DNA of 64,000 nt from Yuukianura sp. NJ FZ-2021 (taxonomy: Eukaryota), in the NCBI GenBank assembly GCA_046563655.1, contig CM102283.1:2294001-2358000 (forward strand), read 5' to 3'. A program made the translations under genes and the position numbers. Shown one piece after another: positions 20,103 to 63,243 of this stretch. Within the stretch, counting starts at the first letter, position 1. Each line of letters opens with the position of its first letter. The notes beneath the pieces were generated by a model. The model did no database searches. It saw only the letters and a list, made by a program, of their open reading frames with translations, and was not told where the DNA came from.

Positions 20103-20710
20103 TTCGTGAACTTTCAATTCGGATAATGGCAGAATGTTGAAAAATTTTCCTTCCAACGATTTCCAAAATTTCATTCTGTCCACCAATCAGAATTATACTA
20201 AATTTTCATGTACCCTAAATTATTGTATACAGCGAATGAAAAACTTTAAAACTTGGCGGGGGAACAAACTAAAACTTTGAAATTCCTTTTCTATTTTGAT
20301 TGCATTGTAAACATTTGACATTTCCCCGTAACTTCATCAATTGTTCTAAAAATAACATTGAAAATTGTCTGTCAACTTCTATGACATTAGGCCTTAAATA
20401 ATTTAGCCCTAAAAATTCTCGGGAAACTTGAAGCTTCTGTTTAAAAAAAGCATATAAGAAAATTTTGAACTCAAACGTCAAACAAATCATTTGTTCTGCC
20501 AAAATTGTGAGCGCAACGTTTTCCTTACAAACATTGGCAATCAAGGGAATATATATTAGTATATAACGACTTTTTACATATTAAAACGAAATAATATTAA
20601 CTTTTATTTTCTTTAATAAGCATGGAAAGCAAATTTAATACTGTGCGTATAATCTATACTGCCGTTCGCTAATGCGTGGCCATCTTTCGCTACTTTCGTA
20701 CACTCTGTGT

Positions 20711-22525
20711 TTACTTGAAGGAAATGAGTAAGCCAGTGACTCCGTTGAGAATTGTGTCGATGAGAGTAAGTTTGGCTTTTCCTTCCATTTCGTAAAGAGT
20801 GCCAATTCGGACCCGAATGATTCCTAGACTCCGCAGTTTTGCTCTCAAGTACTTCCGTCCAATTGGATTAGCGATATTTGGAAGTTGAGACCGCGCTCTC
20901 ATTTTGAATTGCGTGGAGAGTGTGTACAGAGATGACATGACGACTGCTGGTGGAATGAGCATCGTCCCCATGAAGATGAAATTGGATATGTTTTTGACAA
21001 ATGTATCTACACCCATACTCGTTCCAAAATGGATGGCAGAAAACGTAGAGCCAATGAACATGAATAGCATGGCAAATTTGAACGCAGGGATGAAGAAAGT
21101 ACCGAAAATTATGCCAAATAATTTGTTGATCAAGAAAACGCAGCGGTAAATGTGCAGATTTGCATCAAATTGCTCAACAGTATAGTCTCCAATGCTAGAC
21201 GACAAATCCGTTACACTGAAATATTACAATGAATGGATTTAGTTCAATTTTTAATGCTAAAAAAACAATTTGATCACATTTTCAAATAATTGCAGTAACA
21301 TTAAGGGAAAACAAGATTGCTTATTCAAAACGTCGTGTCTGTCCGTCCGTCCGTCTGTCTGCCTGTATGTAATATGTTCATTCAAAAAAATAAATCTGAG
21401 ATTTCATAAAACTTGCTCCTCTTTGAACAATTTCGGCCTAACTTCCAATCAAGAATGGAAAAAGTCTATCTTTCGCTAGTTGTGCACATCTGATCTATAA
21501 TTGTTCACAACAAATTTTTTTAGGTAATTAAATTAAGTATGTAATATGTTAAAGTTTACATAAAAATGTTTCCTTTCTTTGTTCATATACTTACATTTTC
21601 TGTTCTTCTGTTGAAGCATTTTCTCTCCAACTTCTAAACAAAAGCTTAAACCTTCTCTCTGGCGCTACTTATGCACACCCGATTTATAACAACACACAAT
21701 GAATCTTGCTAATTAAATTAATTAATGTAATATGTTCAGGTTATCACAAATTTTTCTTTCGTTTCTTATAAACTTGAAAATCTTACCACGTTTGTAGCCA
21801 ATATTTCATGCTGATTACCGTTGGAAACAGCGACGTGCAAAGTAAAACGTGATTCGAGAAACAATGATCGATAGAATGAACCACCGTTACAACCGTGGCA
21901 ATTGCAATTACAATTGGCGAATTGCCCAGTACGATATCCGTAACTATGCAGAACATGCTGATAAAAGCGTAATTCCCTTGGAGGAATATAAGAACTGCTT
22001 TGAAGTGTCTCCGGAAAAAACCTGGAGGGGCCTTTGGTTTATCTTTACCGAATTTGGATCGGATTTGTTCTAAAAGTTAAAAAAATTAAGAAAAATCTTC
22101 TTTTTCGAGTTTTTGTTTTTAAAAAAAAAGTGGATACCGCATATTTTGCTGAAACTGATAACTTGAAAAAAGAGCATAGCATATTCGTCTGGATATTGTC
22201 GAAACACTTCGTCCATGACAATCTGTGAAATTCGGAATTTGATTGCCATTGCAAGCATCGTCAAGTGACCAAGCAGCTTGGCGTCGTAGCCCTCCATATT
22301 GCGTTGAACTTTGACAAGACCGTAAAATATAACACAGCAGTACAAAATTTGAAGTAGGCGGGCAATTTGCAACGCATCTTTGAACCGTGCAAGCCATTTT
22401 GGCAAGTACGTGTTCAAAACTGGCCCATTTGGAGTATTTTCAACAAATTTAAACTGGGAATTTGGAAGTTTTGTGCAACGTTTCAACTTTGAGTTTACGA
22501 GTTGGAGTTCCGCCGCGGTGAACAT
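20711..22525 (-). CDS. Gustatory/odorant receptor-like membrane protein, family B copy 2; complement(join(20711..21215,21787..22069,22138..22525))
   Basis: Tandem paralog with the same exon lengths (388/283/505 nt). Confidence 0.75.
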
Positions 22526-23754
22526 TTTGTGAACTTCCGATTAGGAATGGCAGATTGTTTTCATCAACGACGAAATTTAAGAAAAATTTCCATTTCAATA
22601 TGCATCGCCAAAAATTTTCTTCCAATTACTTCCAAAATTTGTTAAAGGCTGTCACCAATCAGAGTCGTATTAAATTTTTAAGTAATTGAAAATGTTAGCA
22701 CTCAATTCAATCATTTTGAAAAAGCGAATGATACCAATACAAGACAAAGTTGTTCCACGATTTTTTTTTGAAATGATGTTTTTTTTAAAACTTTGTTTTC
22801 GCCACAATTTGTAGGATTCGGTGAAAGTAGGAGGGTCTATTTGAAGTATTTAATCATCGTATCACTGTCAACCACGGAATTTGTGAATTACTTTGAAAAT
22901 TGGATCAACTTTTTCGCTAATTGCAAGCACTTTGGAAGTTGTTAGACATTGCATCGGCCTCTCGACATTCGAATCCAAATGAAATATTTTCCAAAGTTCG
23001 ACTTTCAACTTGCATAACAAGTATTTACAAATTCTCCGAAACATGACTTTTCCTTTCTTGTAATTTCATGGAGTTTGTGTCAAAAAAAATTTTTTTTTTT
23101 TTTGCTTTTTGTGGGCATGTCAAAACGCCATTTTGTGAAATCAATTTTCAAGTCTCTCCGGATGAATCACTAAGAAACGAATTACTACGAAAGCAATTCG
23201 ACTTTCCAAGTGATTTGTTTTGTTATATATAAAAAGTATTCCGAGTTACTAAAAGTTTTTAACATGGTTCAAATTAGTTTTGGCATCAGAGCCAAAATGG
23301 CAGAACCAAAATTGGATAACTGCTAAAATATAGCTCATAAAATCGCAATTAAAATCGCTGAACTTTTTCTTACAAGAAGATTTTCAGTACGCTTAACTTT
23401 TTTTTTCTTAAGAGTTTTTAGTTGTTTATGTTTTGCAAATTACTTTTGCAATTCATTTTCCCGTTCATTTGAGTTAGATGGAACTGTATGGGCCTTTCTG
23501 AAAGAGCGTAATTTCTATGGAGTAAAATTTCCTATTGAAACTATGTGCAGAATATATTAAGTTTCGCAAATTTCGTAGAATTTTTTTGTCTAGGAAGAAC
23601 CAATTGCGTCATTGACAATACAATCATAACATCAATATAAGTTTGTTATTCAGTCTCTGCATTTAGTAAACAACAGTTGGGAAGAAAGTGAAAACGTTTG
23701 GCTCATTTTCACAATTTTTTTTTGCTACTTTTGTGAATTTTGGCTTTCGCTAAA

Positions 23755-25191
23755 ATGAAATTAAGTGCTAAGCAACTTGCAGTTATAGCTGTTGGAGTAG
23801 GAGTTGTAACTGTAACGGCAATTTGCCTTGGGGTGTTTTTGAATCGAGACAAAGGTAAGAAAATTAAATATTTCATATAGTGTATATAGATATTTTTGTT
23901 TTACGTTATAACTTGTAGTACTCATTGAATTAGAATACTCATACATAGGCACACATAATACGTAGTAGTTATAATTCCATGTTTTTATTTATAATTTTAC
24001 GTTCACGGGTACACACGGACAATCACCGGATCATGTTTCTTTAGTATAACTTAAAAAACCTTGTACGCTACAATTTTAGGTTACTGCAAAGCCAGTGCCC
24101 GACTGTATTTTGAAACGGACTTCAAAGGTACGCGGTGTAAATTTTTTTTACTCCAAAGGAAATTGATCAGTTTATATTTAATTTAATCATATTTTATATG
24201 TATAAATTTTTGAAAAGTGTTTGGCGCTTTTTTTAAAGGTGACTATGAGGACTACAACTCCAACTATGCAGCAACTCGGAGAGACTGCGCATGCTACCAC
24301 TACGACGCATGGGCTAGAGAAACCATCAGATCCGTCGACACTTACGGAACTTGCGTACGTGTTTTTGTTCACGGCTTTTGCAAAGGCCAATCGCTGGCAG
24401 TATATCCAGGAAGCACCATGGCAACCAATCTACGTCTTGGACCTGCGGGAGTCTTTTCTGGAATGTCTGTTGGATGCTGCGTAGAGGAGGAGTTTGTTAA
24501 TTCAACTTTTCGCGCCCTTTTGCCGCCCAAATTGTACAAGCACTACGGAAATATCACGTGGGTATTTGAAACGGGAGTTGCTGTCAACTATACCGGAACG
24601 GACTACGATGGTTTGAACTTGACGTTGACCAATGATGTATCAACTAATCCCGGCTATTTGTACTTCCATGATTGGTTCGTTTCACAAATATCACGTATTA
24701 CAGAAGATGTTAAAGGCCATGTTGTAAATGCTGGACAGTACTTGACTTACAGTAGACAGTACCTTGTACCCAAGAACGGAGAAAAATTCTTCTACCGAGT
24801 CGAAGAAATCATGCAAACGGAAATTTCGTTGGCAAACTTTTCAAATCCGCAAACACCGCGTGAAATTTCCCGCGAAATTTTGGAGTACTACGAAACTCTG
24901 GAGAAGAACCACGGAGATACGTTGGGATTCTTCAGTCCTTTAGAAATAGGTGGTCCATCGAATGTGACTTACAATGTATTCCCAATGAGTTTTGGCGCCA
25001 AAACGAAAATGGCCAAAGTAATTACGAAAATACGAAATTATCTTGAAGAAACGAAGAGATCGGTTAGATTATCGCTGGATATTTCGTACCAGTATGAATA
25101 TTCTACGCGACCTCTGGGATATACCTATCGAATCGAGGATGAAAAAGAACGAGATTCATTGATTTCTTACGGTGTTGTTCTTAACAATTAA
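23755..25191 (+). CDS. TM + beta/gamma-crystallin-like + endonuclease-fold protein, copy 2; join(23755..23854,24080..24127,24239..25191)
   Basis: Same exon structure as copy 1 (100-nt and 48-nt exons). ARLYFETDFKG...GTCVRVFVHGFCKGQSLAVYPGS and GDTLGFFSPLEIGG...NVFP...STRPLG. Confidence 0.8.
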
Positions 25192-26518: not shown

Positions 26519-29500
26519 TTACATTTGGTCTTCAGTAAATAATTCGCTCGCCTTCCTTGATACCATGATCTACAAATTAAAATAATTTTTCATATAGTTG
26601 GGATGTTAAAGTCCTGAACACTTGGATTGCATTATTTTGTTTATTACTTTGATCAACATTTAATCAAATATTAACCTTCAAAGTTTTAAGCATGTACACG
26701 GTTAATTGAAATTACCGACATACTCGTTGGGGCACAAGAATTTTCGGGATGAAGTGTCGGAGACTTAGGTGCTCGGTGACGCTGACTCAATTTTCGACGA
26801 AAAACCATCAGCACTTCACTGTTGCAGAAGCAAAACAGCAGTGATACGCAGAATCCCTAAAGTTAAGTAATTTTATATAACTTAATTAATATAATAATTT
26901 ATAAACTAAAACTTAATTAACTTCTTGGTACCTGTAGTGAAGCAACTGCTGCCGCCACAACATCGTAGATCAGCGCTTGCCGAGTTCCATGTGTTGGTCG
27001 AAACGGAATCAGAAGGTAGTGCAAGCCAAGCAACGGAATTAGAATCAGCGTGGCTCTCACGGCCTGTCAGAGGTCAAAGGTCACAAGGTCAAAAAAATCA
27101 AGAATATTCAACAGCAAAACATTTAAACCATCTCAAAACTTCCTATATTCTTAGTTGTTGTGTGCAGGACAAGCAAGTCGCAAGTGAGGAACTTTGAAAG
27201 CGAGAGGTCAAAGGTCACATGTAAATCCACTCTGCTACTGACTTATCCCTGCTTCACATGCAAAAACATGAAGTTTGTAGTGGAGTATACTTAAGGGCCC
27301 GCTGTTCCTTTTGACATTAAGACGCTTCAAGCAGCGGAAGTGTCAAGGGACTTTGGACTTTGGAGGACTTTCTGGAAGGGAATTTCTAAACCCTGCTCCT
27401 GTCTTGGAATGAAGTGTAGCACTTCTGGAAGTGGCAGTTTTAAAAATAGGATTTTGAAAATCTTGAAAATGAAAATTTGTCAATTTTGGTTTGAATTTTA
27501 GCGAAATTTTCATTTCCTATTAACTTTAACTTTAAGATTTACCTTCCTTAGAGACAGATGATTATCCATCATGGCTCCAATTGACGAGTTTCTTCTGCAG
27601 ACGTTTGTGAAGTTCCGCTGATTGTCTTTCAATTTTCGAACGAGAACGCGTAAAATGTTGATGAGGAATGCCAGAGACAGGGCGAGTGACAAGCAAACTG
27701 GTATGGATAAAATGTAGTTCCAACTACTCTCTTCTACCCAGCATCTAACATATAAAATATAAGAAGAAATCAAAATTTTAAATTTTTCAAAATTGAAAAA
27801 AAAAATCAGCGTAAGTTTTGATCGGTACTCGTTAACACCCGGAATTCAATTTCTGCGATTTTTTTCGTTTCGCGGCGCGGATAAAAACAAAAGTTTGGAA
27901 GCTGTGCTTTCACCACTAAACTTATAATTCAGTGATGATGAGCAAATTGAGGCTTTGTGGCTTTGAAACTTTGAAAGTTTAAAACACAATCCGCGAATTT
28001 GGAACTTTAAAACTAAAGTTCGGGATTGAAAAGTTTGTGTGTTAAGCGACACAAACTTGTTTGAACAAGAACTGAGAAAAGAGTTATGTTTTAGAATTCT
28101 TTAGCAGCAGGAAGGGAAACGTGCTGCATGCAACAGGCGGAAAGTCTAAAAAAAACGAAACTTTCTCTTCGCCCGGAACATGACAATGACCCGGAAAGGA
28201 AAGTTTTCGATGTCACTTGTTCCTCTTTTCTTTTTGGAGAAACCAAACTGAACTTTTCAAAATTTTACCCTTACACTATCTTATAACCTTGTTTTATAAA
28301 ATTTTAAACAAAATTCAGTTTTTGAAAATGGCACCAAATTTGATTAGGTATTACAAAAACGCACGGCGAAAAAAAAGACGAGAGAAAATTTCTCTTTTCT
28401 CTCCGTGCGTGCTCTACGCCCTGGGCGTGTGTATTTTGTACTTGGATGAGCGGGGTAATTTGAATTCAAAACAAAGCGGGATGATTTGAATTTCAAAATT
28501 TGAATTTTACGCTTGATTTTTGTCTTCATCGTGAGATCTATAGTGAATGTAGAATAGTGTTGGGAGGAGGGGTCCAATCCATCCGAAAACGTAGAAACTC
28601 CGTAGTAGACTGGTGTCAGATCGAATGAAAGCAAGAACCAGAAGTGTATGAAGGTAGAATCCTTCGCAGAACATCCAGAAGTAATTGGCTACCATGAAAT
28701 AGTGCACCAATACATGTAGAACCTTACACCAGAGCTGAAATTAAAAAAAATAAAAGTCAAAGGTGGCAGAGGTCAAATGTCAGTTGAGACAGTGATTGCC
28801 AAGGTTTGTAAACAAAGAATTTTTTTTCTACAACAGTTTGGCCAATAAGTCGGGGTTTTTTCAATTTTGTGCAAAAATTTTTAAAAATGAAAATCGTTCA
28901 GCTTGACCTCCGTTTCTAGTTTCTATGATAATTTCATCTTTTTTTTTTGTTTTTGTAGCAATAGCAATAAGCGACAATTTGGAAAAAAAAATTGGAGGAA
29001 AAGGGGTAAACAGAATTGGAGGAAAATTGGAGCAAAAAATTGTTTTCTTCCTAAAATTTTTGAAGTATGGAGTTATTGGACAACCTGCTGTGGGAAACAC
29101 AATTCTGTGGTCAAGGAACCTTGAAGATTACAGATTTTGAAGTTATACAGAAGTTGGATCGGAACTCATACGGATCAGACGTTATACATATTATGTTAGG
29201 CTGTCAAGGTCAAAAGTCACTGAGGTCAAAGGTCACTGACTTCTACTTACCGGAGTGCGTAAAAGGACGTCGGGACTGTCAACTACTAGACGATAGAAAG
29301 TCATCCATAGGAGGTTGCTGATGATGAAGGAAACGAAAAGATGTTTGTGGATCCGGACACGAGTACACTCCAAGCATCTGCAAAAATTAGCAAACATTGT
29401 GCTAAAAAGTTTACAAATATTGCGAAAAAGAAAAAAAATTAAAGCATCCCGCCTAAAAGTTGAAGCGGAAGTTAGTAAACAGAAGCTTGTGATGCTTGGA

Positions 29501-32500
29501 TTAAAAGAAAGTAGGTCATTTATGTAAATGCAATTGTAAGTAATTACGTAATTACAGTGTAATTTGCAATTCGTAATTAGTAATTACAAAACTTACTTGA
29601 AAGAGCAGAAAATGATGAGAGAGATGATCAGAGCACAAACGGAAATCAAGTAGCCTGATTCGTAAAGCGTGATGACGATACGACGCCACTGAAAAGTTAA
29701 GAAAAATGCGTTTTCAAAAAACTTTTTGAAAATTTTCAAAATTCTCAAAATTTTCAAAAAAAGTCACAATTTGAAATCTTTGCGAATCTGAATCTGACAA
29801 CTTTTGAATTTTGACAGGAAGTGCTTTTCACAAAAACAATCGAAACAAAATATTTGACTTTTTACATCTTGACATTTGCAACCTCGATGACACTAAGCTT
29901 TTCATGTCAAAGATGTAAACAAACAAGTTTTTGTTCAGATTCAACATTGTTTTGTTTTTTAAAATGACATTCCTACAAAAAAAAATCAGTTTTCGAAATT
30001 TTGAAAACTGCTTACCTGCAAATCATCCAAGTCCACACAGTTGGTGTAATTTGACCAAGTTCGATTGTTGTCTGCTCTACGAAACCAATTTCCATCTTCA
30101 CCGCAAGACTTATGCCCAAATCCTATTAAAAGCAAATATACAACTTTTCAAAAAATAATCTTCTTAATTAACTTTTTTTTGAAAAATATATTTTTAGTTT
30201 TGTATAACTTTCTACCAAAATGAGATTTTCTAATGGCCTTTGAGATCAAAGCACCTTTAATGAGAAATTTGACTCTCCGGAGATATTAGATCTATCAGTT
30301 TCCTTTCAAATTTTGAAATCAGAAAGAGGCTTTTGAGAATCTTATTTTCAAAAAATATTTGAAATAAGGAGAACTACGACTCAAGTCATGAAAAGCGTCT
30401 ATTTCAAATGTTCAAAATTCAAAAAACCGAAATGTGAATGTCTTTTTGAAATGAGAAACCCGGGTTTCTTTTGCACTCACTTTTGGTTAAACCTTGAACC
30501 TTCACAGGCAGGGTATCTCAGTGTCTTTTGTTCTTTAGACCCCGGGGAAATTCAAAATGTTAGATTTGAAAAAACGCACACTTTTCTTAATGCAGCACCC
30601 AAAAAATCTCACTTGCGTTTTTTAAGATACAAAGTTGAGATTCACACATTTTTCAAATTCCATAAACTTCAGATGGTTTTAAACTAAAATTTTTTCTTAA
30701 TTCAAAAATTTGAAAATTCCCGTTCCCCCAAAGGTAGCTTGGGAAACCCTGCTTTTTCAAATAGAATTTTGTCCAATTACATTTAACTGTACAGACAAGA
30801 AGCGAAAAGACATGGCGGGATATGTCAAGTTTTTGAAAACGAAGAACAAGGAGTTGTATTTACAGCGTGTTTCTTTTCAAGCCATCTTCTCCAAAATGTC
30901 TGTTTGAATTTTCCCTCTTCTGGAAAATGTCTTTTCCAATTTTCCTTTAGTTTGTTTTTCAAAACGCGCTCCAAATATTTCTCAAATTCAAATATTTGCT
31001 TTTCATGCTTCAACGAGCACAAAATTTCCAATATTCGTCTCTTCTTGTTTTAAATTCAAATAGTACATAACCTACAAACTACTGTCGCAATAACTTTATT
31101 TGATGCTCAAAAATGGCAATGTTGAACAAACAAGAAACCATTTCCTTTAAGAAAATTTGAATTTCGAAAATTTCTTCCGCTTCAGTTGTAAATCTTGACA
31201 AAACAGGCATTGGTCCGTCCATGAGCAAAGAGATGCTGGCGAACAGGTTTGCTAATTCTCTGTTTTCCGTACAGAATGAGAGTTTCCAATTTGGGAATTT
31301 TTTCAAAACCAAAAACCACGGAAATATCTGAAATCCATTCGCCCAAACCGCGAAGTACGAGAGTTTCCAATTCTAATATGAAAAACATGACATTTTCATT
31401 AGTAATGATAAATGGTGGAGGAAAATTTGAAATTCCGATGGCGGAAAAATTCAAATTCCCTTGAGCTCATGACAAGAGTTATTAATGAGAAATGTAATAA
31501 CGTACGACTCATTTCTCCAATGGCGTGCCCTGTGATCTCATACTCCGGCTCGTGCAACAGGAAGTCTTGGTGATGAGTGAGTCTGTTGATTGAACTCTGG
31601 CTGATGCCCGTTACCCCTCCGTCGGTCAGAGTTGACATGTTGACCTGCAGGTCAAAGGTCAAAGGTCACCAACATAAATTACATTCTAAATTTGACATTT
31701 ATTATTATAAAAGATTAAATGGTGTAAGGGAATATGGTAGGAATTAAAATTAGTCAAGGTCAATGACCTGCCAGGTCAAAGGTCAAAGTTCCGGATTAAG
31801 GTTAGGCCTTAAGTAGTTCTAGTTAGTTTTCGTTAAATGGAGTAAAAATGCTAAAGGCCAATGACCTGTAACGTCAAAGGTCAATGATCTGCGGTTGGTA
31901 TTAGTCAAGGTCAGTGACCTGCCAGGTCAAAGGTCAAAGTTTTAAATTAAGATTAGGCCTTAGTTAAATGCAGTCTTAGTTAATGGTAGTAAAATATTAA
32001 AGGTCAATGACCTGCAAAGTCAGATGTCTCAGTGTTGGATAGCTTTCCATGAGGAGTTGAAATTCGCGGTTTCCAATTTGAACTTGGCTCATGTGCGAGT
32101 ACAAATTTTCTGGTCGCACGGCCATGTGACCTCCAATGGAATTCAGCCTCGGGCCATCGACTATCGTCAGTTCCGAAAGTCCATTGAACTTTTTCACGAG
32201 TGGCTCCAAATTCAAATTCAAAAAGTGGGGATTCATAATTGCGATGCTCAGAGAAGCCATTTTGGGAAACGTCAATCTTTCATCGCTCATCCAAAATTCC
32301 CGCAACTCTTTTGTGCGTCGACTATGAACGCTGATTGCAAGGGCACGAACTTCTTGATACATTGGATCCTGCATACGGATTGAAATTTCGGGAATGACCT
32401 CTTGACCTTCTAGGTCAGTCAAGTGCAGACCGAGGTCAATCACTGCAGGGTGAACAAGGTGAATGACTTCTGGTGTGACCGGATCTGGAATGCCTTTGAG

Positions 32501-45333: not shown

Positions 45334-45996
45334 GGTTGCATGCCATTGGTGCGAATGAATTGGTTCGAGGCGCAATGGTGCGAATGAATTGGTGCGAAAC
45401 CAATTGTGCGAATGCTGCATAGGTGCGAAAGAGCATAAATGCGAAACCAATTGGTGCGAAAGATTAATTTGTACGAAAGATTATTTGCCTTATATTCGGT
45501 AAAACGGCGCTGCAATTTTTACAAATAAAAAATCCTTTGAAATCAATCTTTAAGCGTGAGGACCAACAGAAATTAATAAATTATTGTTATTATGCTAACC
45601 AAACCTAACGCGCGCCTTCGGCGCGGAGATTTTAACAAAGAACAATATTAGGTATAGGTTATACTTGAGATCCTCATTCCGCATGTGAAAGTCACATTGT
45701 TAATTACAATGTGACGTAGAGTCTTAATTAATCAATGCTACACAGAAAGAGGTGTGACCGCCAAAAACGGATTTCAGATTCGGAATCTGAAAACTGATAT
45801 TAAAACAAGTTTTTATTCGTAAAAATCGCAGCTCCGTTTTACCGAATATAAGGCAAATAATCCTTCGTACCAATTAATCTTTCGCACCAATTGGTTTCAC
45901 ACTTATGCACTTTCGCACCAATAAACCATTCGCACCAATGCAGCATTCGAATCAATTGGTTTCGCACCAATTCATTCGCACCAATGGCGTGCTACC
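45334..45996. mobile_element. Foldback MITE with TGGTGCGAA subterminal arrays
   Basis: Ends GGTTGCATGCCATTG...CAATGGCGTGCTACC. Near-identical to 52678-53422. The flanks share only GGTGA. Confidence 0.88.
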
Positions 45997-46543: not shown

Positions 46544-48185
46544 ATGGAGTCTGAACAGAAGACGAACGTTTGTCAAATGCCGACGAAATGGAAGTGGATC
46601 CTTTCTGGAGTCATTTGGTACTGCACATTCTCTCTGGTAAGGAAAATGTTTGCGCATGTGTAAACTCATTTACGTTACAAATGCTGCCCATATCTATAAA
46701 AGCATTTCGCACATGAGCAAAATGCCTCAAGTACGTTACTATACGCAAGATCTGTGCTAAAATCGTCTGAATTTTGAAACAGGGTCTTGGAGTGGGATTT
46801 ATTGGATCATCGTTGATCGAATTGAGCAAAAAATTTGGCACGGACATTCCAACGTTATCGAGAGCCTTCACTGTACTCACGTTTTCATTCCTCCTTGGCG
46901 CCATTATCTGTAAGTTAATTAAAACACCATTAAATTTTGAATCGGAATTCAAATTTGCCTCCATTTTTTATTTTGAAATTTCAAAGGTGGAGTGGCATTT
47001 AACTATGTAAACCGTCAAATAGCCTCAGGTCTTCTGCTGCTGTTGATGGGTGCCGGTACCATTTTGATGCCGCTGGTACCGACGGTACCGTTGTTCTTTT
47101 TAACAGCGGGAATCGTGGGATTCGGCGGTGCTGGATACGATACGGCTCAAATCGTCTGGATCATTGAAATGTGGGAAGCTCATGCACCGCCGTACATTCA
47201 AACGCAACATTTCAGCTACGCCGTTGGTACCGTCGTGAGTCCACTGCTCGTCAAATCGTTTTTGCCGCCAGAGGAAAAGGACGACTCGGATTTAATTTTT
47301 CTCGAACAAAACAAACTTGCTTCTGCGCAGAACAATACTTCTGAAGCTTCTGCGCAGCTCGACACTCTACTGTACACAAGTACTTCACCAGCATCCGGGC
47401 AATTACCTTACTCACCAACCCTATATATTCCTTTTCTCATTGGTGGAATCGTGGCTATTGTGGGCGGAGCTATAATCCTCTTGCTCTACTGTATCAAAAA
47501 ATATGAAAAGCCGAAGCAAGTTGAGGGGTCAAAGGTCACCGAAAAGGTCAATGACCCCGGGAAGTCCCGCGGTTGCAACTTCCGCAAAATCGTGCTGATT
47601 CTACTTTCTGCCGTAGTGCTCGGCACCTACTGTGGCATGGAATACTGCACGTTCCAGTTTTTGCCATCATTTTCACACTTTCTGGACTTGAAACTGTCAC
47701 AACAAGATGGCGCTTTAGTGCTCTCTGGCCTAGCTTCAGCCTTTACCTTAGGCAGGTTAGTCGGTATCTTCATAGTACTTAAAGTTCCGCCAGAAATCCT
47801 GTTGCTAGGCAACAGTATACTCATATTAGGTGGCAACACTCTGTTGCTATGCTTCGCAAATACCTCTGCTCCTCTTCTCTGGGGTGGATCTCTGACGCTG
47901 GGTTTAGGCTTCTCTACAGTTTTTCCAGCTTTTTATGGCTTCATCGAGCGACATCTAAAAGTGTCCAATGTCGTGGGTGCTGCGATGATCGTGGCGGGAG
48001 GAGTCGTGTCAAGTTTGTATCCAATTGTGATTGGCTCTCAGATTGAAAAGAACCCACTAATTCTTATGTATACAAACTACTTCAGTTTGGTCATGTCCAT
48101 GAGTGCCTTTTTCATCATCTATGTCATGACTGAGGTCAAAGGTCATCGACCTCCAATAGAATTTGACCTCCAGAATGGAAAGTAA
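46544..48185 (+). CDS. Major facilitator superfamily transporter (MFSD4/NaGLT1-like); join(46544..46636,46783..46909,46987..48185)
   Basis: About 12 hydrophobic segments. GFGGAGYDTAQIVWIIEMW, QHFSYAVG, YCGME and AFTLGRLVG. Confidence 0.85.
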
Positions 48186-49405
48186 CCGGAGATAGCTGAG
48201 GTAGGTGTTGGCTTTTAAGCCTGTTTTTAGTCCCTATAATAGTTACTTTTGCGACAGTTAAAGTAAAAGGTACTTTGTTAATTAGAAAGGACGTCTCTAA
48301 TTTCTACGCCATTTTGGTTCGAACCAATTGTTTCTAAAGTAAAAGTTTCTAAAAATTGCTTCAACATTAACAGCTTTGAGCGTTTGGAAAAAAAAATTTT
48401 TTAGAATTTTTTGTTCTAAATTAGAATGTTCATTTTCTGAGGTAGGAAACGGCGTTTTTGCTGTGCAACAAAGGTTACCTTCTATCATGGTTAGAGTTTG
48501 GCACAAAAACTAATAAAAAAAAAAAAAAAAAAAAACTAATGAAATTTCGCCCAAAATTCAAAGTGAAAGTATTTCGGTATCTCGCTACGGAAAGTACCGC
48601 AAATTTCAGATCCATAAGCGGCGCTATTGTTGTTGCGAAATGCAAAGTTGCAGATTCACTGCGAAATGCATTAGAGCAACACAGCAAAGAGTTTTTTTCC
48701 TTCATATTTTGCAAACGCCAATTTCATAGACTATAGCTCTGTTTAAAATTCATCAAGGTCAAAGGGGTGAAAAACTTAACTTTGTTTGTTAAAAAGAATA
48801 GTTAGTGTTCATGTCTATGTGTTAGTAGTATTTTAGCACACATTGCTAACATGTTGTTAGACTTTATTCCGGCTAATCTTTTCGCAACATCATTCGGTTG
48901 CAATTACAATATTTTTTTTTACTTTCCGAGAAAATGTTGAGAAACTGTTCCAGTGAAAACTGAATTCCAAAATATACCGTCGAATTTGCAGGTCAAAGGT
49001 CAAATGAAAAAATCAGCAAAAGATTGGACAACATAAGGCAAGTGTTAAAGCTTTTTTAAATTAAAAAAATAAGCTTTTGCAAAGCTTTTTTTTTTAATGT
49101 AAACTAGATTCTATTATCCCAGTCCAGTCTAACCTATGATCGAGTGTATCACTTAACCTAAAACTTAACTTTTCTTGGAAAATGATAATAAATACTGACG
49201 TAAATGACTAATGTGTTGTTGATGATGAATTTTAATTTTTAGAGTTTTGTGCTTTTGCATGCAGCACCGTTCTATAAAAACCGCCTCCAGTGCCACAAGC
49301 CACTTCAGTGTCCAATGTCCCGTTGGCTCACTTTCGTTAATTGTTAATCGCAATTTACTAATTTCCGGTTTCTGCCTCACGCTACCCGTGGCAATTGCTG
49401 TCATC

Positions 49406-51003
49406 ATGTGGTGGTACTGGAATGTCATCGTTTCCTGCTTTCTGATTGGTCCACCAATTGAAGCCTATGAAATTACTGACCGGCCTTTCAGTCAACTGAT
49501 ACAAACTATTCCAATTGCACCACATTTTGAAAATTTGACACTGCACCATGACCTGTACGAGGGCATTGGCAATGGAAGTCTTCAAGTGGAAACTTTTAAA
49601 GCATTCTTACAACAGGATAGACTCTATGTCCAGAATTTATTTAAACTTTTTGAAATCGTCTCTTCCCGGGAAAACGATTCAGAACGAATCAAGTACTTGG
49701 AAAGGCTTGTCCAGGACAGAGGCGTTTGGGATGACCTGTTCGCAGAACTTTTCAGCGATTTCAGCGTTCCTCCAGCGAATCAAATGACTCCAGCCACACT
49801 TGGTAAGATGCAAACAGAAAAAAATAGACTCCTATAACTCAAAACTTTTTAAAACTCACCCAAATTCTCAAATTTTTTGAATTTTTAAAACTGTCGCATT
49901 TAGATTTCGCGGGAAAACCATACATACTTGCCAAGTACGACGACCTTGGAGTTGCGCTTGCGTCGCTCACAACCTGCTTTACACTTTGGCACAAAATCGG
50001 GCTCTACTGGAAATCTTTGAATCCGGAAATTCAGGGTTCAAATCCATACAAGAAATTTGTTCAAAAAGTAGCTGAGCAGGAAGCCACGCCTCCAGAATTT
50101 CTGACTTTTGTTGACGGTTACTATGCCAGGCTGAACGGCAGTAAACCAAAAGAACTGGCAGTGAAACAGCGCATGCTCGATGCCTATACTGAATCGATGG
50201 AATTGGAGTATCGATTCGCTTGTGAAATGCTGAAAGCTCGACCAATCAACGCCTCTACAGTGTTCACTGACACGACTCCTCTCATTCTTCCAGAAATCCA
50301 AAATCAAGTGATCAATCATCCTCTTTATACTGAAATTGCATTGGGAACTTTACCACTTGAAACGTACAAAGTCCTTATACAACAAGACTATTTGTACATG
50401 CGCGGATTCTACAAAGCATACGAGTACATGGAACGGAAAGAAGCGGATTTCAATTTAAAAACGCCACTGCGAAAGGACGGACAAGATTTTTACAATTTCT
50501 TTGAATCTGAATTCAAACATTTCAATTTTGGTCCAGCGTCGGCTACAGCTCCGTATGCCCTTGGTAAGAGTTCGGATTTTAAAACTTCAGTTTAAAAAAC
50601 CACACTTTTTCAAAAAAAAAAATTGGAAAAATACACTCGACAAAAATTTAACGTGATTTCAGAGTACTTGGAGCACGACATAAGGATTGGGCGTGACCGT
50701 CCGGTGGGAGAAGGCGTGGCGAGTACCTACCCATGTTACTTCCTGTGGTTTGAATTTGGCGCCAAAGTTAATGAAATTGCCGCCAAAATGCCGTTTCCCA
50801 ATCATCCCTACCAGACATTCCTGGATAGTGTTAAACCAAGTTACAACGAAGACAGTGTTGAAAAGGCCAAGAAAACGCTGAATCAATACTACAACTCAAG
50901 TTCATTGGAAGGAAAGTACCGAATACTGCAAGTCATTCGGCAGAGCATCTTTCATGAACTTGAATTTGCTAACGGAGTGTATGGACAACGATACCACTTT
51001 TGA
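49406..51003 (+). CDS. tenA: Signal-peptide-bearing tandem two-domain TenA (thiaminase II / TENA-THI4-PQQC family) protein, copy 1; join(49406..49802,49904..50563,50663..51003)
   Basis: Two repeats of the TenA N-terminal motif (HHDLYEGIGNGSLQVETFKAFLQQDRLY; HPLYTEIALGTLPLETYKVLIQQDYLY). Cys motifs TTCFTLW and YPCYFLW; NPY/HPY; ELEY/ELEF. N-terminus MWWYWNVIVSCFLIGPPIEA. Confidence 0.85.
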
Positions 51004-51572: not shown

Positions 51573-53848
51573 ATGTGGATATACTGGAGTGCCATCGCTT
51601 CCTGCTTTCTGGTGATTGGTCAACCCCTTGCAGCCTACGACATCACAAACCAGCCATTCAGTGAGCTGATCGAAACAATTCCAATTGCACAACACTTTTT
51701 GAACTTAACGGTGCACCATGACCTGTACAAGTGTATTTTAAACGGGAGTCTTCCAATGGACACTTTCAAGGCGTTTTTACAACAAGGTCGACTATATTTA
51801 CTGACTTTGTTGGACATGGAGGAGATAACCACAGCTAGGGAAGGCGGCCCAGAGCGGCCAAAATTGTCGAGACCACAGCAGGATGTTAGGGACATGTTAA
51901 AGCGTTCTATGGATGAATTCCTCGGGGACTTCGGAGTTCCGAAAACAAATCAAATGACTCCAGACACTCTAGGTAAAATGTAAGAATTGGTAAAAGATTT
52001 TGCTAAATTATTAATTTTTTACCTCTAGATTTGGCGGGAAAACAATTCCTTATTGCAAATTACGACGACCTTATGGTTGTGGCTGCTTCTGTTGTATCCT
52101 TCATTAAAGTTACCCATGAATCCACACTTTACTGGAAAGCTGTGGTTCCAAATCCAGAAACTCCGCGTTCGAACCCATACAAGAAATTGATTGCACCAGT
52201 TGTATTTTCGGACAAGGATCCGCAAAAGGTTCTAGCTTCTATTGACGGTAACTACGCAAGACTCAACGGCAGTGAACTAGCAGTGAAACAGCGCATGCTC
52301 GATGTGTACACTGAATCCATGGAACTGTATTATCGCTTCACATGTGAAATGCTGAATGCTCTACCAATCCCCGCCTCCGCAGTGTTCACCGACATGACAC
52401 CTCTCATTCTTCCAGAAATCCAAGGTCAAGTGATCAACCATCCTCTGTACACTGAAATTGCACTAGGCACTTTACCACTTGAAACGTACAAAGCCCTTAT
52501 CCAACAAGACTATTTGTACATGCGCGGATTCTTCAAAACTTACGAGTACATGGAAAGGAAAGAGGCAGATTTGAATTTCAAAGAGTCACTGCGCAAGCAA
52601 GGCCAGAATTCCTACGATTTTTTTGAATCTGAATTCAAGCAGTTCAACTTTGGTCCAGCCTCGGCTACAGCTTCGCAGGTTCCATGCCATTGGTGCGAAT
52701 GAATTGGTGCGAAGCACAATGGTGCGAATGAATTGGTGCGAAACCAATTGGTGCGAATGCTGCATTGGTGCGAATGGTTTATTGGTGCGAAAGAGCATAA
52801 GTGCGAAACCAATTGGTGCGAAAGCTTAATTGGTGCGAAAGACTAATTGGTACGAAAGATGATTTGCCTTATATTTGGTAAAACGGCGCTGCGATTTTTA
52901 CGAATAAAAAATCCTTTGAAATCAATCTTTAAGCGTGAGTACCAACCGGGATTTATAAATTATTATTATTCTGTAACCAAACCTAACGCGCGCCTTCGGC
53001 GCGGAGATATAACAAAGAACAATATTTGGTATACGTTGGTTATACTTAAAATTCTCATTTTGCATGTGAAAGTCACATTGTTAATTAGAATTTGACGTAG
53101 AGTCTTAATTAATCAATGCTACACAGAAAGAGGTGTGACCGCCAAAAACGGATTTCAGATTCAGAATCTGAAAATTGATATAAAACAAGTTTTTATTCGT
53201 AAAAATCGCAGCGCCGTTTTACCAAGTTTAAGCCAAATAATCTCTCGTACCAATTAATCTTTCGCACCAATTAGTCTTTCGCACCAATTGGTTTCGCACT
53301 TATGCTCTTTCGCACCAATAAACCATTCGCACCAATGCAGCATTCGCACCAATTGGTTTCGCACCAATTCATTCGCACCATTGCGCTTCGCACCAATTCA
53401 TTCGCACCAATGGCGTGCTACCGCTTCGCATGCCCTCCGTAAGTTAAAAATACAATTTCAAAAACATTTTTTTTTGAAATACAATTTTGAAAAAAAAATA
53501 CGTCTAGAGTACTTGGAACACGACATAAGAATTGGGCGTGACCGTCCGGTAGAAGAGGGGGTGGCTACACTGTACCCTTGTTACTTTCTGTGGCTCGAAC
53601 TTGGTGCCAAAATGAATGAAATTGCCGCCAAAACGTCATTTGTGAAACATCCATACCAGACGTTTTTGGACAGATTAAAATCAGAACGTATCCAAGACAG
53701 TGTTGATGAATTCAAGCAAACGCTGAATCGCTACTACAATTCGACATCTCTGGAAGGAAAGTATCGAATGCTCCAAGCCATTCGACAAAGCATTTTTCAT
53801 GAACTTGAATTTGCAAATGGAGTGTATGGACAACGATACCATTTTTAA
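51573..53848 (+). pseudogene. tenA: TenA two-domain paralog, copy 2, with exon 2 interrupted by a MITE; join(51573..51972,52029..52677,[MITE+TSD],53431..53438,53508..53848)
   Basis: Colinear with copy 1 and with the same introns. A 745-bp insertion near the end of exon 2 gives a stop at 52702. Domain 1 has QQD->QQG and lacks the Cys. Confidence 0.8.
52678..53422. mobile_element. Foldback MITE with TGGTGCGAA arrays inserted into a tenA copy 2 exon
   Basis: Perfect 8-bp TSD GCTTCGCA (52670-52677 and 53423-53430). Termini GGTTCCATGCCATTG...CAATGGCGTGCTACC. Confidence 0.93.
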
Positions 53849-57336: not shown

Positions 57337-59558
57337 TCACGGTCGTATCACCCATTGTTCTTCTGCAGGTACCTCCTTGACCTTGAATTCTGGAAAGATT
57401 GTGTCCGGATTTAAATTCGCCAGCTCATCCATATATGCTGTGCGAAACGTTCCTGTTATAAAACAAACACAAACGTTGTTAAAACGCGTCAAACTTACAT
57501 CATGTCTCGAAGCAAGTTCTAAAGAATATAGTATGTATACCTGGTCCACGAACATCGTTTCTCACTCCTGCATGTTCACCGGCCAAATTGGCACAAACGA
57601 TCCTACAAGATACAAAAAAAATCATTTTCGAGAAATTTTTTCCAAAAACAAAGCTGCAGATACCAATAACTTCTTTAAAGTTAAGTAAAATTAAGTATAG
57701 CAGAAGTGACATTTTTGTTCTTACCCGGCAACAGCTGCTGCAAAATGATCTTCTGGCGAAATTCCAGCAAAAGAGGCCACGATGGCTGACACCATACAGC
57801 CTGATCCAGTAATCCTCCCTTGGTACGGATGTCCATTCTTAATTGCCACAGTTCTTGTTCCATCAGACACGTAATCCACCTTGCCGGTCATGGCCACGAC
57901 ACATTCTACAAAAAAAGACATTGTGAACAACCCTGCATTGATTAATTGCAACGATTAATTAAAGTCAATCAGCGTGAATTACGTTCTCGCTTGGCCAGAT
58001 CCGCAACAATAAGAGCTGGATTTGAAACTTCTCCGACCGAATCTACTCCACGCATTTGCACGATTTCCTCTGGCATGTAGCATCCAACAATTTCAGCCAA
58101 TGCCAAGATTTCACCACAATTTCCTTTGATAATGTCAACATGGACGGAGTTCATAATCCTCTTTGCTGTTTCTCGACGAAGAGTAGTCGCTCCAGCACCA
58201 ACAGGATCCAGAATAACTGGTTTCGATTGAGCATTGGCATGTTTTCCTAAATGCAAAAACACAAATTCTTAAAAATCATTATGCTCATGATTAATAAATA
58301 ATTGACAATGATAATTAGGCGAACCTGCTTCTATCATACACTCCACAACAGGTTCAGTCAGAGTTCCAATGTTAAGGACAACTGATGAGACAACTTTGGA
58401 TAAGTCTTTGGCTTCTGAAGCATCGGGTGCCATGATAGGAGATCCACCAATGGCAAGCGTACAGTTTGCAGTGTCGTTCATAGCAACATAGTTTGTGATG
58501 TGATGGGTGAGTGGAGTGTTTTGTCTCAGGGTGAACAATAATCCTCGGACAGACTGTAAAACTTCTTGGACAGAAGTAACATTTCTTGTTTGAGGTTCTC
58601 TGGCAGCAGTTTTTCCCGCTTTGACTTCATCTACCAGTCGAGCAGTAGCGGCTTTAGCATCAGGAGCAGCCACGATAGCCGAAACTACTGCGACTCCGTC
58701 CAGAAAACGATGTTTGTTAACAGCTGATGCCCGGACTAGACGTTGAGCATTGTCAATTGTGATTCCACCAATACCGACCGCCTTGATCCTGGAATTGTTC
58801 AGTACTTGCAGAATACTTCGCACACCGATGTGACCCAGGCAGGGAGATGTAGTCACCCTTGTGTCTGTTTTGTAACATGTTTGGATTCCAAGGTAATCAG
58901 CGCCGTCTTGGATAGCAATTGTCGCCTGGGACGGTGTTTCAACTGATACGCCAATGATCTTCGTCGGTCCTAAACGTTGCCGGGCTTCAGCACAAGGCAT
59001 GTCATCTTGTCCGACGTGAAGACCCTCCGCATCAATGGCAATGACAACGTCGATATTGTCGTTGATTATAAGTGGAACGTTGTGCTAAAAAACGCAAAGA
59101 TTTAAACAATTTCTTAATTGGGCTTCAATTAATTGAAGGCATCCCTAAATCCAACTAAGTACCTTTTTAGTAACTTCATGGATGTCCCTTGCAAGCGTAA
59201 TAAAATCTTCAGTACTCAAATTCTTCTCTCTCAACTGAACAATTTTCACACCTCCCAGGATTGCATCTTCAATTGTCTGCGTTAGAGTTCTGGAAGGATG
59301 GTTTAGTCCAGAGTCAGTGACAAGGTAAACGCTAAGGTCGATGCCATCCAAAAGCGACGGAGGAAGACCAACGTTGTCCCTGAATCAAAATAAGAGAAAA
59401 TCATGATTACCAGCATTTTGTTAACTACAAATCACCATTGATTTTGACTAATCTTACAGCGGTTGTGGTTGTGACATTCTTTCGAAAATACGATGCCCTC
59501 GTCCTCTGCCTCGCCCAACTGGACTAGTTTCCATTGGTACAGTGTCAACGTTACTCAT
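57337..59558 (-). CDS. THI6: Bifunctional thiamine-phosphate synthase (ThiE) / hydroxyethylthiazole kinase (ThiM), fungal THI6 architecture; complement(join(57337..57452,57541..57602,57725..57905,57983..58246,58325..59084,59163..59379,59458..59558))
   Basis: ThiE motifs: LSVYLVTD, IVQLREK, PLIINDNIDV, GLHVGQDDMP, IIGVS, GADYLG, GIGGI, DGVAVVSAI. ThiM motifs: HHITNYV, ANCTLAIGGSPIM, LNIGTL, ILDPVGAGAT, IKGNCGEI, ITGSGC, GPGTFR. Seven exons join in frame. Confidence 0.93.
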
Positions 59559-61350: not shown

Positions 61351-62021
61351 TGCGTCGTCGGAAACCAACATGGCGGCCATCGCCCATTGGTTTATGTGAC
61401 TACTTCCAACTATTCTGAATATTGCATTTTTCCTACAGCATCTCATCGCCGAAAGTAAATCCTAGCGTGCCCTCTTTACCCGTTCCACTCTGGTGTGAAG
61501 TGGCCTTTACGGGCAGAAAAAACCCGGGAAAATTTCAAAAAATTGCGAAAATTTTTTTTTTTTGGAAATCGTTTCAAAATATGGAAGAATAAGTTCCGGA
61601 AGTAGTTTTGGAGATTAAAATTATTTTTTTCTAAAAATCAGCGATTTTTATTCAGCGCGAAAAAAGGCTGTCGCCTATCGTCTACTGGTAGGGAGGTCAT
61701 GCATTAAGAAGTTAGCGCGGCAAATAAAAGTCAACCGACGCTTTTTCTTTGCTTCTTGGCTATCAGTTTTGCTCTGCTGTTTTCTAGTAAAAGTTCACTA
61801 GTTAAACACTAAATATTATTGAATTAAGTTGCCGTACGACAATTAAAAAGTGATCTGCACGTGAATTGAGCGAGAATAACTTCAATTAAGGTGAGTGAGC
61901 CACTTCTATTGTTTTCTAATTCAGTTATTGGTACTACTGCATTGTGAGAGGGGATTTATGTCGCAAAACGAAAAGTTATTTGCTAATGGCTACTATTATA
62001 TTTTGTTTTGGCAGTTAAGGT

Positions 62022-63243
62022 ATGCCTGTCCATTACTCGGAAGAGCAGCGCCTTTGCATAATTAATCTTCGGTTGGAGTACAAAGATGAAACCAGTACCG
62101 AGCTCATGCACAAATACAATCAAAATCCTATCTCGCAAAATCGACCTATGGAGCATCCAAAAGATGTGAACCGAATTCTTAAACGATTCTCTGAACTGGG
62201 TAACACTAAAAACCGTCGAAAATCTGGAAGACCAAAAACAGCGACAGACGAAAACTCGGCAATAGGGATTCTTGGGGCTTTTGCGGCTGATCCTCATATT
62301 TCAACCAACCAAGTTGCTCGTGATATGGGTGTTTCGCAAACGTCTGTTATGAAGGTGAAAAATCAGTACAACTGGAAGTCCTACAAACCTAGAGTCCATC
62401 AACTCCTAAAATTTACGGACTATCCTGACAGAGCCTGGTTTGCAAGAATTTGGCTTCCAATGCTAAACGGAATACCTGACTATGCGAAAAACATCGTCTT
62501 CACCGACGAAGCAACTGTAAAACTGGACGGAACTGTTAATCGGCAAAACTATAGATACTGCTCGGATACGAATCCGCATTGGAATGTCCCAGGTTAGACT
62601 TTTAAAAAAAGGTGACTTAAAAAGGAATAGTTGTGTTTTGCAAAAAAAATCCCCTCCATAACTAATTAGTGAAAACTATGGTGGGGTATTGATGCCATGA
62701 TTTTTTCTTCTGATTTTAGTTAAAACTCAATCGGCCGGAAAAGTGAACCTGTGGGTTGGTCTTTTTGGTGACGAGGTGATTGGACCAATATATTTCAACG
62801 GGAATTTGACGGGACAAATGTACCTGACCATGCTACAACAACAAATTGTGCCTGCAATTTTGGCTTCAGCAACACGTCAAAACATTCCACATGCTGACAT
62901 CATTTACCAACAGGACGGTTGTGGGCCGCATTTTTCATTAATTGTACGAAACTACCTAGATCAGACTTTTCCCCAAAGGTGGATTGGACGTGCCGGTTGG
63001 TTTCATTGGCCAGCTCGTAGCCCAGATTTTTCGCCACTTGATTATTTTGCGTTTGGGACAATGAGAGGGAATATTTTTTTACCGCCAAGACCTGCCACTG
63101 CGTTGGACTTAATGCGACGAATTGACGATTTTTTTCATGTGCACGTTACGCCTGAAAAACTCAGAAATGTAAGAGACGATTTCCGTAAACGTTTACAACT
63201 TTGTCTTCAGGAAAATGGGAGTCATTTCGAACATTTAAAATAA
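62022..63243 (+). CDS. DD41D transposase with one spliceosomal intron; join(62022..62592,62720..63243)
   Basis: RRKSGRPKT, HTH-like STNQVARDMGVSQTSV, IVFTDEA, YQQDG and WPARSPDFSPLDY. There are 41 residues between the 2nd and 3rd catalytic Asp. A phase-1 GT-AG intron restores the frame. Confidence 0.9.

Follow-up and report, generated by a model that had tools for sequence, protein, structure and literature searches.

We analysed a 64,000-bp stretch of the Yuukianura sp. NJ FZ-2021 genome (contig CM102283.1, positions 2,294,001 to 2,358,000, forward strand), hereafter called the window, in which a gene named here copy 1 encodes a hydrophobic leader followed by two TenA domains in tandem. A second, interrupted gene of the same type (copy 2) follows it on the same strand, and a gene for a ThiE-ThiM fusion of the THI6 type lies farther on in the opposite orientation. 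The coordinates of all the features are collected in Table 1. The frame of copy 1 runs from the ATG at 49406 to the TGA at 51001-51003 and comprises 465 codons (1398 nt) without internal stops, distributed in three exons of 397, 660 and 341 nt. Both introns have GT..AG boundaries and are in phase 1, and their GC content (0.26-0.27) is lower than that of the exons (0.43-0.45). An in-frame ATG at about 49260 was rejected as the start because it is located upstream of the TATA box and has no counterpart in copy 2, and because the homology between the two paralogs begins exactly at both ATGs, that is, at 49406 in copy 1. The boundary between the two TenA domains is near 50253/50254, inside exon 2. 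When the two repeats are aligned to each other the introns share one column (MTPATL/DF and TAPYAL/EY, the slash marking the intron). An earlier note, made from the sequence alone, had described at this place a leader plus two tandem TenA domains, with a phase-1 intron at the equivalent position of each repeat; both descriptions hold, now with exact coordinates, a three-exon gene structure and the profile matches presented below.

Profile and PDB searches were carried out with three in-frame exon pieces of copy 1, each of them roughly half a domain. The three pieces matched Pfam family PF03070 (TENA/THI-4/PQQC) with 29.7, 37.5 and 25.4 bits, relative to a cut-off of 22, and with E-values of 7e-7, 2.8e-9 and 1.4e-5. 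The matches spanned profile positions 12-66 (N-terminal half of repeat 1), 6-73 (N-terminal half of repeat 2) and 110-203 (C-terminal half of repeat 2). The C-terminal half of repeat 1 presented a sole profile match, to the TenA part of the NCBIfam ThiD-TenA model NF011301 (E 1.1e-4). The best NCBIfam match for two of the three pieces was TIGR04306, the thiaminase II (salvage_TenA) model. Repeats 1 and 2 are 28% identical over 153 amino acids (E 5e-19).

Active-site positions were numbered through HMMER alignments to Bacillus subtilis TenA chains (in chain 1tyh the number is the native one plus 2). Asp44 of B. subtilis TenA corresponds to D71 in domain 1 and D294 in domain 2, both in QQD motifs; Tyr47 to Y74 and Y297; Cys135 to C157 (TTCFTLW) and C377 (YPCYFLW); Glu205 to E234 (ELEYRF) and E451 (HELEF); and Phe208 to F237 and F454. 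C377 was aligned directly to Cys135, and C157 by way of the repeat alignment and of C154 in the homolog P0001 (see below). The QQD, Cys and Glu residues that the earlier note had quoted for both repeats are therefore located at D71/D294, C157/C377 and E234/E451. The active-site Cys is a marker of the TenA_C subfamily, according to the available text of PMC10277260 and PMC5635689, and by this marker both domains of copy 1 are predicted to be TenA_C-like.

An exhaustive search of 1.84 billion representative proteins with exon 2 as the query yielded 46 proteins at E<=1e-3 and 3 at E<=1e-30. P0001 (462 amino acids) and P0002 (401 amino acids, N-terminally truncated) are two-domain proteins with two PF03070 stretches each, and they keep the QQD, Cys and Glu in both domains; the other strong matches of the family were mostly fragments. 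In the domain units of copy 1, copy 2, P0001 and P0002 taken together, the Asp, Cys and Glu are retained in 7 of 8. The family came to light only in the exhaustive search: word-indexed searches with exon 2, made among proteins of greater or comparable length, detected no relative. In the protein atlas P0001 led to generic TenA clusters only. Neither P0001 nor P0002 gave a locus in 185,579 bacterial and archaeal genomes, in a scan that detects close relatives only. From these comparisons, copy 1 belongs to what appears to be a small, previously unnamed eukaryotic family.

The N-terminus of copy 1 reads MWWYWNVIVSCFLIGPPIEA followed by YE, and that of copy 2 reads MWIYWSAIASCFLVIGQPLAA followed by YD. 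In copy 1 the hydropathy of the leader peaks at residue 7 with a value of 2.81 (9-residue window), and a -3/-1 site is found at residue 21; the signal-peptide reading was made with manual rules considering the h-region and the -3/-1 residues. The hydrophobic leader of about 20 amino acids, noticed earlier in both paralogs, turned out to be present in all seven family members that are complete at the N-terminus (copy 1, copy 2, P0001, P0013, P0014, P0015 and P0044); P0002 and P0010 begin inside the protein and were excluded from this count. In the family leaders the apolar core is 11-14 residues long and position -1 holds a small residue; next come a conserved Tyr, replaced by Gln in P0001, and the motif F-S/T-x-x-I-x-x-I-P. 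The putative cleavage sites in the seven members are IEA/Y, LAA/Y, SCA/Y, ALA/Y, TLS/Y, VVS/Y and SWS/Q. Past the leader, P0001 aligns from residue 2 of B. subtilis TenA, so that the leader is an addition to the TenA fold. By these features the leader looks like a cleavable signal peptide. Inspected by eye, 1 of the 29 single-domain TenA matches of 195-250 amino acids had a comparable leader (P0027). In the more distant TenA family, hydrophobic leaders were seen in this single-domain protein of 228 amino acids and in P0037 (524 amino acids), whose N-terminal region resembles, by eye, a hydroxymethylpyrimidine (HMP) kinase; TenA-type export may therefore extend beyond the two-domain family.

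The positions of the two introns could be compared with the fragments of the family. At intron site 1 the similarity stops in the five fragments that reach it (P0010, P0013, P0014, P0015 and P0044), and past the site all five read on as G-K or G-N, as expected on reading into a phase-1 intron that begins with GTAAG or GTAAY. At intron site 2 the six fragments reaching the site either end or diverge (P0003, P0004, P0005, P0006, P0008 and P0009), and in P0005 the similarity resumes in frame after a 27-residue insert; P0007, which ends about 8 residues before the site, is uninformative and was not counted. P0001 and P0002 are continuous across both sites and are thus either spliced models or the products of intron-less genes.

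A tree of 37 rows was built with the 8 domain units and 29 single-domain matches; it drew on the 35 proteins P0012-P0046, leaving out the family fragments P0013-15 and P0044 and the long fusions P0036 and P0037. The 8 domain units formed one clade, apart from the 29 single-domain TenAs, with a support of 100 in the SH-like approximate likelihood-ratio test (SH-aLRT). Within it, the four domain 2 units grouped together (85), as did three of the four domain 1 units (96); domain 1 of P0001, on a long branch, was not resolved. Since all the domain units form one clade, a single duplication before the species of the family diverged is indicated. The two-domain form would have a single origin in the tandem duplication of an intron-containing eukaryotic gene, prior to the divergence of the known members, and most simply the duplication would have copied an intron already in place. 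The introns of the same column and phase across the family and the clade of 8 units agree with the earlier proposal that the internal duplication took place after intron gain, in a eukaryote.

Copy 2 has the exon structure of copy 1 and is 68.5% identical to it. Its exon 2 is split, 13 nt before the donor site, by a miniature inverted-repeat transposable element (MITE) flanked by an 8-bp target-site duplication, GCTTCGCA, at 52670-52677 and 53423-53430. When the MITE and one copy of the target site are removed, an open frame of 465 codons is restored. In domain 1 of copy 2 the equivalents of Asp44, Cys135 and Glu205 are replaced by Gly, Phe and Tyr, and that of Tyr112 by Leu, and the exon 1 piece of this copy gave no PF03070 match at E<=0.01; domain 2 is intact. 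The ratio of nonsynonymous to synonymous substitution rates (dN/dS) between the copies was 0.19 for domain 2 and 0.31 for domain 1, and essentially all the domain 1 divergence fell on the copy 2 branch (0.98 versus 0 on that of copy 1). Copy 2 thus appears to be a decaying duplicate, in which the catalytic residues of domain 1 would have been lost first and exon 2 split by the MITE later. Over the 29 nt tested the two ends of this MITE do not differ, pointing to a recent insertion; its repeat arm has 4 matches in the window relative to 0 expected. The earlier note had mentioned neither the interruption of copy 2 nor the residues lost from its domain 1.

The ThiE-ThiM gene, about 4 kb past copy 2, is predicted to encode a thiamine-phosphate synthase joined to a hydroxyethylthiazole kinase. 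It is full length: the tblastn alignment covers residues 6-517 of the 519-amino-acid Mortierella alpina protein P0047. Among its 321 database matches the best 19 all come from what we take to be Mortierellomycota (53-60% identity), followed by presumed Mucorales, Kickxellales, chytrids and Ascomycota at about 40-48%, and no named animal protein was found among the best 120 of the 321. The contig also carries two genes of animal type, a class-B receptor gene with HRM and 7tm_2 pieces (the HRM domain, with 24.2 bits, is just below the cut-off of 26.2) and an ODF3-type gene, and for this reason it is not a fungal contaminant; the latter gene implies an organism with cilia or flagella. The simplest reading is that of an animal genome carrying a fungus-derived thiamine-assembly gene, a candidate fungus-to-animal transfer; a less simple alternative is a flagellated lineage of fungi that has yet to be sampled. 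The GC content of the TenA and THI6 exons, overall and at third codon positions (GC3), equals that of the neighbouring genes, and a recent transfer recognizable by composition was consequently rejected. That the transporter encoded upstream of copy 1 works with TenA or with the salvaged precursors is a guess. The berberine-bridge-enzyme (BBE) family occurs commonly in fungi and plants but rarely in animals, hence the BBE-type gene of the window may be another transferred gene. Control by a thiamine pyrophosphate riboswitch was considered and rejected: no Rfam match in the window reached its gathering score, and at E<=1 the region of 46-61 kb gave only sub-threshold wcaG matches. The latter, two matches to this bacterial RNA motif at 52724-52827 (+) and 53273-53376 (-) with about 30 bits each (gathering score, 42), are symmetric in the MITE arms and were taken as a chance likeness of the repeat structure.

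Table 1 Features of copy 1, copy 2 and the rest of the window (positions within the window; TATA boxes come from a pattern search and a reading of the sequence only).
Feature	Position	Strand	Basis and remarks
TATAAAA box of copy 1	49273..49279	+	133 nt 5' of the ATG
Copy 1 leader, residues 1-20, MWWYWNVIVSCFLIGPPIEA	49406..49465	+	Proposed cut IEA/YE; hydropathy and -3/-1 site
Copy 1 exon 1	49406..49802	+	Leader and N-terminal half of domain 1; D71 (49616-49618), Y74
Copy 1 intron 1	49803..49903	+	101 nt, phase 1, GTAAGA..TTTAG, GC 0.27
Copy 1 exon 2	49904..50563	+	C-terminal half of domain 1 (F134, C157, E234, F237), linker, N-terminal half of domain 2 (D294, Y297)
Copy 1 intron 2	50564..50662	+	99 nt, phase 1, GTAAGA..TTTCAG, GC 0.26
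Copy 1 exon 3	50663..51003	+	C-terminal half of domain 2 (Y354, C377, E451, F454) and stop codon
TATA box of copy 2	51398		
Copy 2	51573..53848	+	Exons 51573-51972, 52029-52677 / 53431-53438 (split by the MITE), 53508-53848
MITE in copy 2 exon 2	52678..53422	.	745 bp, terminal inverted repeats of about 37 nt
Second MITE copy	~45334-45996		Repeat-arm matching
Major facilitator superfamily (MFS) transporter gene	46771..48185	+	Pfam MFS_1, E 4.5e-13; directly upstream of copy 1
THI6-type ThiE-ThiM fusion gene	57370..59384	-	Pfam TMP-TENI and HK across 4 open reading frame (ORF) pieces
Class-B (secretin-type) receptor gene	26920-30147	-	HRM piece and four 7tm_2 pieces
ODF3/SHIPPO-type gene	2032-3800	+	At least 6 PGP...Y...P-x-Y/F-T repeats
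BBE-type FAD oxidase gene	7581-9527	+	
Second BBE-domain fragment	13428-13715	+	
Two paralogous 325-amino-acid single-exon ORFs	5774-6751, 24214-25191	+	No Pfam family
Tandem paralog pair	10306-12702 / 14754-17159	+	Multi-pass membrane-like by eye; no Pfam match
Tandem paralog pair	18690-20186 / 20711-22540	-	Multi-pass membrane-like by eye; no Pfam match
Transposase-like ORFs, at least 2 frames	62019-63243	+	Weak sub-threshold helix-turn-helix; DDE-like C-terminal part by eye

The fold was examined on an AlphaFold2 model of the homolog P0001, built from a 12-row alignment, and not on the copy 1 protein. The model was all-helical, with a mean predicted local distance difference test score (pLDDT) of 62.4 and a predicted template-modelling score (pTM) of 0.45; the leader and the inter-domain linker were below 50. 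In a Foldseek comparison with the PDB, ranks 1-14 were all TenA structures (B. subtilis, Pyrococcus, Pyrobaculum, H. pylori and BT_3146), with template-modelling (TM) scores of 0.60-0.74 on the target and E-values from 1.8e-3 to 1e-2. CADD, PqqC and UndA appeared below them, at ranks 23-50, and a diiron oxidase reading was rejected since such structures rank under TenA. The TenA fold expected in the earlier note is thus favoured by the Pfam matches of copy 1 itself and by the first 14 Foldseek ranks of P0001, with the qualification that the P0001 model is weak and its best E-value is 1.8e-3.

B. subtilis TenA (PDB 1yaf, 1tyh and 2qcx) shares with copy 1 the Pfam family, probably the fold, and five active-site residues matched in both domains. 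It consists, however, of a single domain without a leader, whereas the copy 1 chain carries two domains after its leader, and the identity in the fold alignment of the P0001 model is only about 15-20%. A second point of comparison is the TenA_C subclass of BtTenA (BT_3146), a protein that Bacteroides exports in its vesicles; the subclass has also been reported from aquatic invertebrates and fish (PMC10277260, available text). The likeness is that of a Cys-containing TenA outside the cytosol, a location predicted for copy 1, and of TenA in animal genomes, but BtTenA is single-domain and copy 1 is two-domain. BT_3146 (PDB 2a2o/2a2m) was missing from the PDB sequence matches of the TenA pieces and of P0001 (E<=1 or E<=10) and ranked only 12-13 by fold in the Foldseek comparison of P0001; the copy 1 family would thus be a lineage other than BtTenA. 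Membership in the BtTenA-like subclass of aquatic animals was accordingly rejected, there being no sequence match to BT_3146. The background statement of the earlier note, that characterized bacterial TenA is single-domain and cytosolic, needs the qualification that a vesicle-exported bacterial TenA was already known, as described in the same available text (PMC10277260).

Saccharomyces THI20 (PDB 3rm5) is also a eukaryotic multi-domain protein, with a C-terminal TenA that works in pyrimidine salvage, and it gave weak sequence matches. THI20 is a cytosolic ThiD-TenA fusion, whereas in copy 1 the fusion partner is a second TenA domain; no PF08543 (HMP kinase) match was found on any copy 1 exon piece and, having no ThiD domain, copy 1 is not of the THI20 type. 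In the cyst nematode Globodera rostochiensis the genes GROS_g07352-55 form a thiD-thiE-thiM-tenA cluster, interpreted in the available text of PMC4901422 as a horizontal transfer, in which tenA is likewise located beside last-step thiamine-synthesis genes in an animal genome. In the window, unlike in that cluster, ThiE and ThiM form a fusion of the fungal THI6 kind, closest to Mortierellomycota, and there is no thiD nearby; the TenA is internally duplicated and has a leader, and it is by gene neighbourhood that it is set beside the nematode tenA. Nematode sperm are not known to have flagella, and the ODF3-type flagellar gene of the contig argues against a nematode. Secreted thiaminase I, found in Paenibacillus, myxobacteria and some fish, is likewise exported and acts on thiamine, but it is a base-exchange enzyme with a fold and chemistry unrelated to TenA, and none of the searches made here gave a sequence relation to it.

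A secreted or tandem TenA of eukaryotes did not appear in the open-access literature searched, nor did a THI6 of rotifers, springtails or tardigrades; the available part of the main text of a compendium of metazoan horizontal gene transfers (PMC13342648) does not mention thiamin, vitamin or Collembola. Already known are an extracellular TenA, the vesicle-borne BtTenA (available text of PMC10277260), and an animal tenA beside thiD, thiE and thiM, in cyst nematodes (available text of PMC4901422). What appears to be new is the combination of a eukaryotic leader, an internal duplication that keeps both predicted active sites, conserved introns and a fungal-type THI6 neighbour, for which the open-access literature searched had no counterpart.

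On balance, we lean towards the reading that copy 1 is a functional secretory-pathway TenA, a thiaminase II / aminopyrimidine aminohydrolase whose products enter a thiamine-salvage module acquired by horizontal transfer. The leader would take the protein into the endoplasmic reticulum (ER) and would be cut after Ala20. In B. subtilis TenA the Cys adds at C6, the leaving group is lost and a Glu-activated water gives HMP. Each domain of copy 1 would act in the same manner: the Cys thiolate would attack C6 of the 4-amino-2-methylpyrimidine ring, the C5' leaving group would be expelled and a water activated by the Glu would then give HMP. The substrates would be the aminomethylpyrimidine of degraded thiamine and, more slowly, thiamine itself. 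The enzyme would act not in the cytosol but in the lumen of the gut, in the surrounding medium or in a lysosome-like compartment; the extracellular thiaminase II of the earlier note is an inference as regards both the activity and an end location outside the cell rather than in a lysosome- or gut-like compartment. HMP, plus the thiazole if thiamine is cleaved, would be taken up by the cells, where an HMP kinase encoded elsewhere and the neighbouring THI6-type ThiE-ThiM would rebuild thiamine phosphate.

Several observations weigh against this reading. Regarding the enzyme, the C-terminal half of domain 1 had no PDB sequence match at E<=10, and exon 3, taken alone, gave only insignificant matches to the PDB (E 0.5-0.7), among which two unrelated chains outranked TenA. 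The TIGR04306 scores of the three pieces were 26.8, 27.9 and 18.7 bits relative to a cut-off of 130, a full-length cut-off that half-domain pieces cannot reach. The fold model is weak and belongs to a homolog, and it had no Foldseek match at E<=0.001. The Tyr112 position is occupied by Phe134 in domain 1 (Tyr354 in domain 2), and no family member has Tyr at the Tyr163 position, which reads Val when this loop region is aligned without gaps. Tyr47, Tyr112 and Tyr163 are, we assume, the substrate-orienting tyrosines of TenA, and with Phe at one position and no Tyr at another, the activity or specificity may differ. Regarding export, the leaders of copy 1 and copy 2 are without the usual basic n-region, which is present in four homologs, and N-glycosylation sequons per 1000 amino acids gave a mixed picture: 12.9 in copy 1, 13.0 in P0001 and 2.5 in P0002, with a median of 4.2 in the 29 single-domain TenAs. 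The mature protein has 3 Cys and therefore no obvious disulfide pairing. Free catalytic thiols are readily oxidized outside the cell, so that a milieu like that of the gut or a lysosome is favoured over the open medium. Regarding the pathway, no HMP kinase (ThiD) was found among the window ORFs scanned, hence the salvage pathway is not shown to be complete.

The alternative that survives best, although we consider it unlikely, retains the same enzyme but makes it a permanent resident of a lysosome, a digestive vacuole or the ER, in which pyrimidine from ingested or autophagic material would be recycled without any release of the protein. A signal peptide shows ER entry only, and the oxidation-prone thiols would last better in an acidic or reducing digestive compartment. 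The TenA protein, however, carries no C-terminal KDEL or HDEL and has neither a transmembrane segment nor a hydrophobic C-terminal tail (its highest 19-residue hydropathy is 1.11), all of which speaks against retention, while lysosomal sorting signals are unreadable from sequence.

Somewhat less probable again is a secreted thiamine-destroying enzyme that would remove thiamine from the gut or the surroundings of the animal, as a means of defence or competition directed at thiamine-dependent microbes or parasites, salvage not being its purpose. Thiaminase II has generally low activity toward intact thiamine, the adjacent ThiE-ThiM uses both products of thiamine cleavage, which fits salvage better, and the loss of one paralog is unlike the expansion of gene families in arms races. 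This possibility draws on the conserved leader, on the cleavage of thiamine by TenA enzymes (vesicle-exported BtTenA degrades it in vitro, according to the available text of PMC10277260) and on the precedent of myxobacteria that starve an oomycete with secreted thiaminase I (PMC10499793, available text); in addition, two active sites per chain would raise the activity per secreted molecule.

A changed function, in which one or both domains would be a binding or carrier protein for thiamine compounds or another heme-oxygenase-like enzyme, seems improbable. The PF03070 superfamily does include the PqqC, CADD and UndA-type oxidases that appear in the lower part of the Foldseek list, and the Phe at the Tyr112 position of domain 1 and the non-conserved Tyr163 would suit such a change, as would domain 1 of copy 2, which has lost three catalytic residues while its dN/dS is below 1, so that a non-catalytic domain 1 seems to be tolerated. 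But the Asp, Cys and Glu are kept in all the domain units except that one, and the top matches by sequence and by fold are thiaminase II and not oxidases. Finally, that the locus is non-functional (a mis-joined ORF, a pseudogene or contaminating fungal DNA) is hardly credible in spite of the broken paralog and the fungal-looking THI6 neighbour, given the open frame across canonical introns, the purifying selection between the copies, the architecture conserved in distant homologs and an exon composition like that of the neighbouring genes.

If copy 1 is indeed a functional TenA of the secretory pathway, a broader proposal, which we regard as doubtful, would be that the animal is partly free of vitamin B1 auxotrophy by means of a salvage module acquired from a fungus, consisting of the THI6-type synthase and an exported, double-headed TenA. 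To our knowledge, animals are regarded as wholly dependent on dietary thiamine, and TenA is in textbooks a cytosolic single-domain salvage enzyme. Were the proposal true, the exported TenA would harvest the pyrimidine of thiamine, and perhaps its thiazole, from the degraded vitamin in food or soil, and the requirement of the animal would be for breakdown products, not for intact thiamine; the internally duplicated, secreted TenA would then be a eukaryote-born family for extracellular vitamin scavenging. The pair of paralogs is a natural experiment on the need for a catalytic domain 1: both domains are intact in copy 1, whereas domain 1 of copy 2 has lost its catalytic residues. The proximity of a leader-bearing TenA with two predicted active sites to a gene for the final two steps of thiamine assembly suggests a capacity, in some animals, to rebuild the vitamin from environmental fragments. 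This would bear on the cycling of thiamine and its fragments in the food webs of soil and water, on the origin of thiamine-degrading activity in invertebrates, and on how horizontally acquired metabolic genes become organized in animal genomes.

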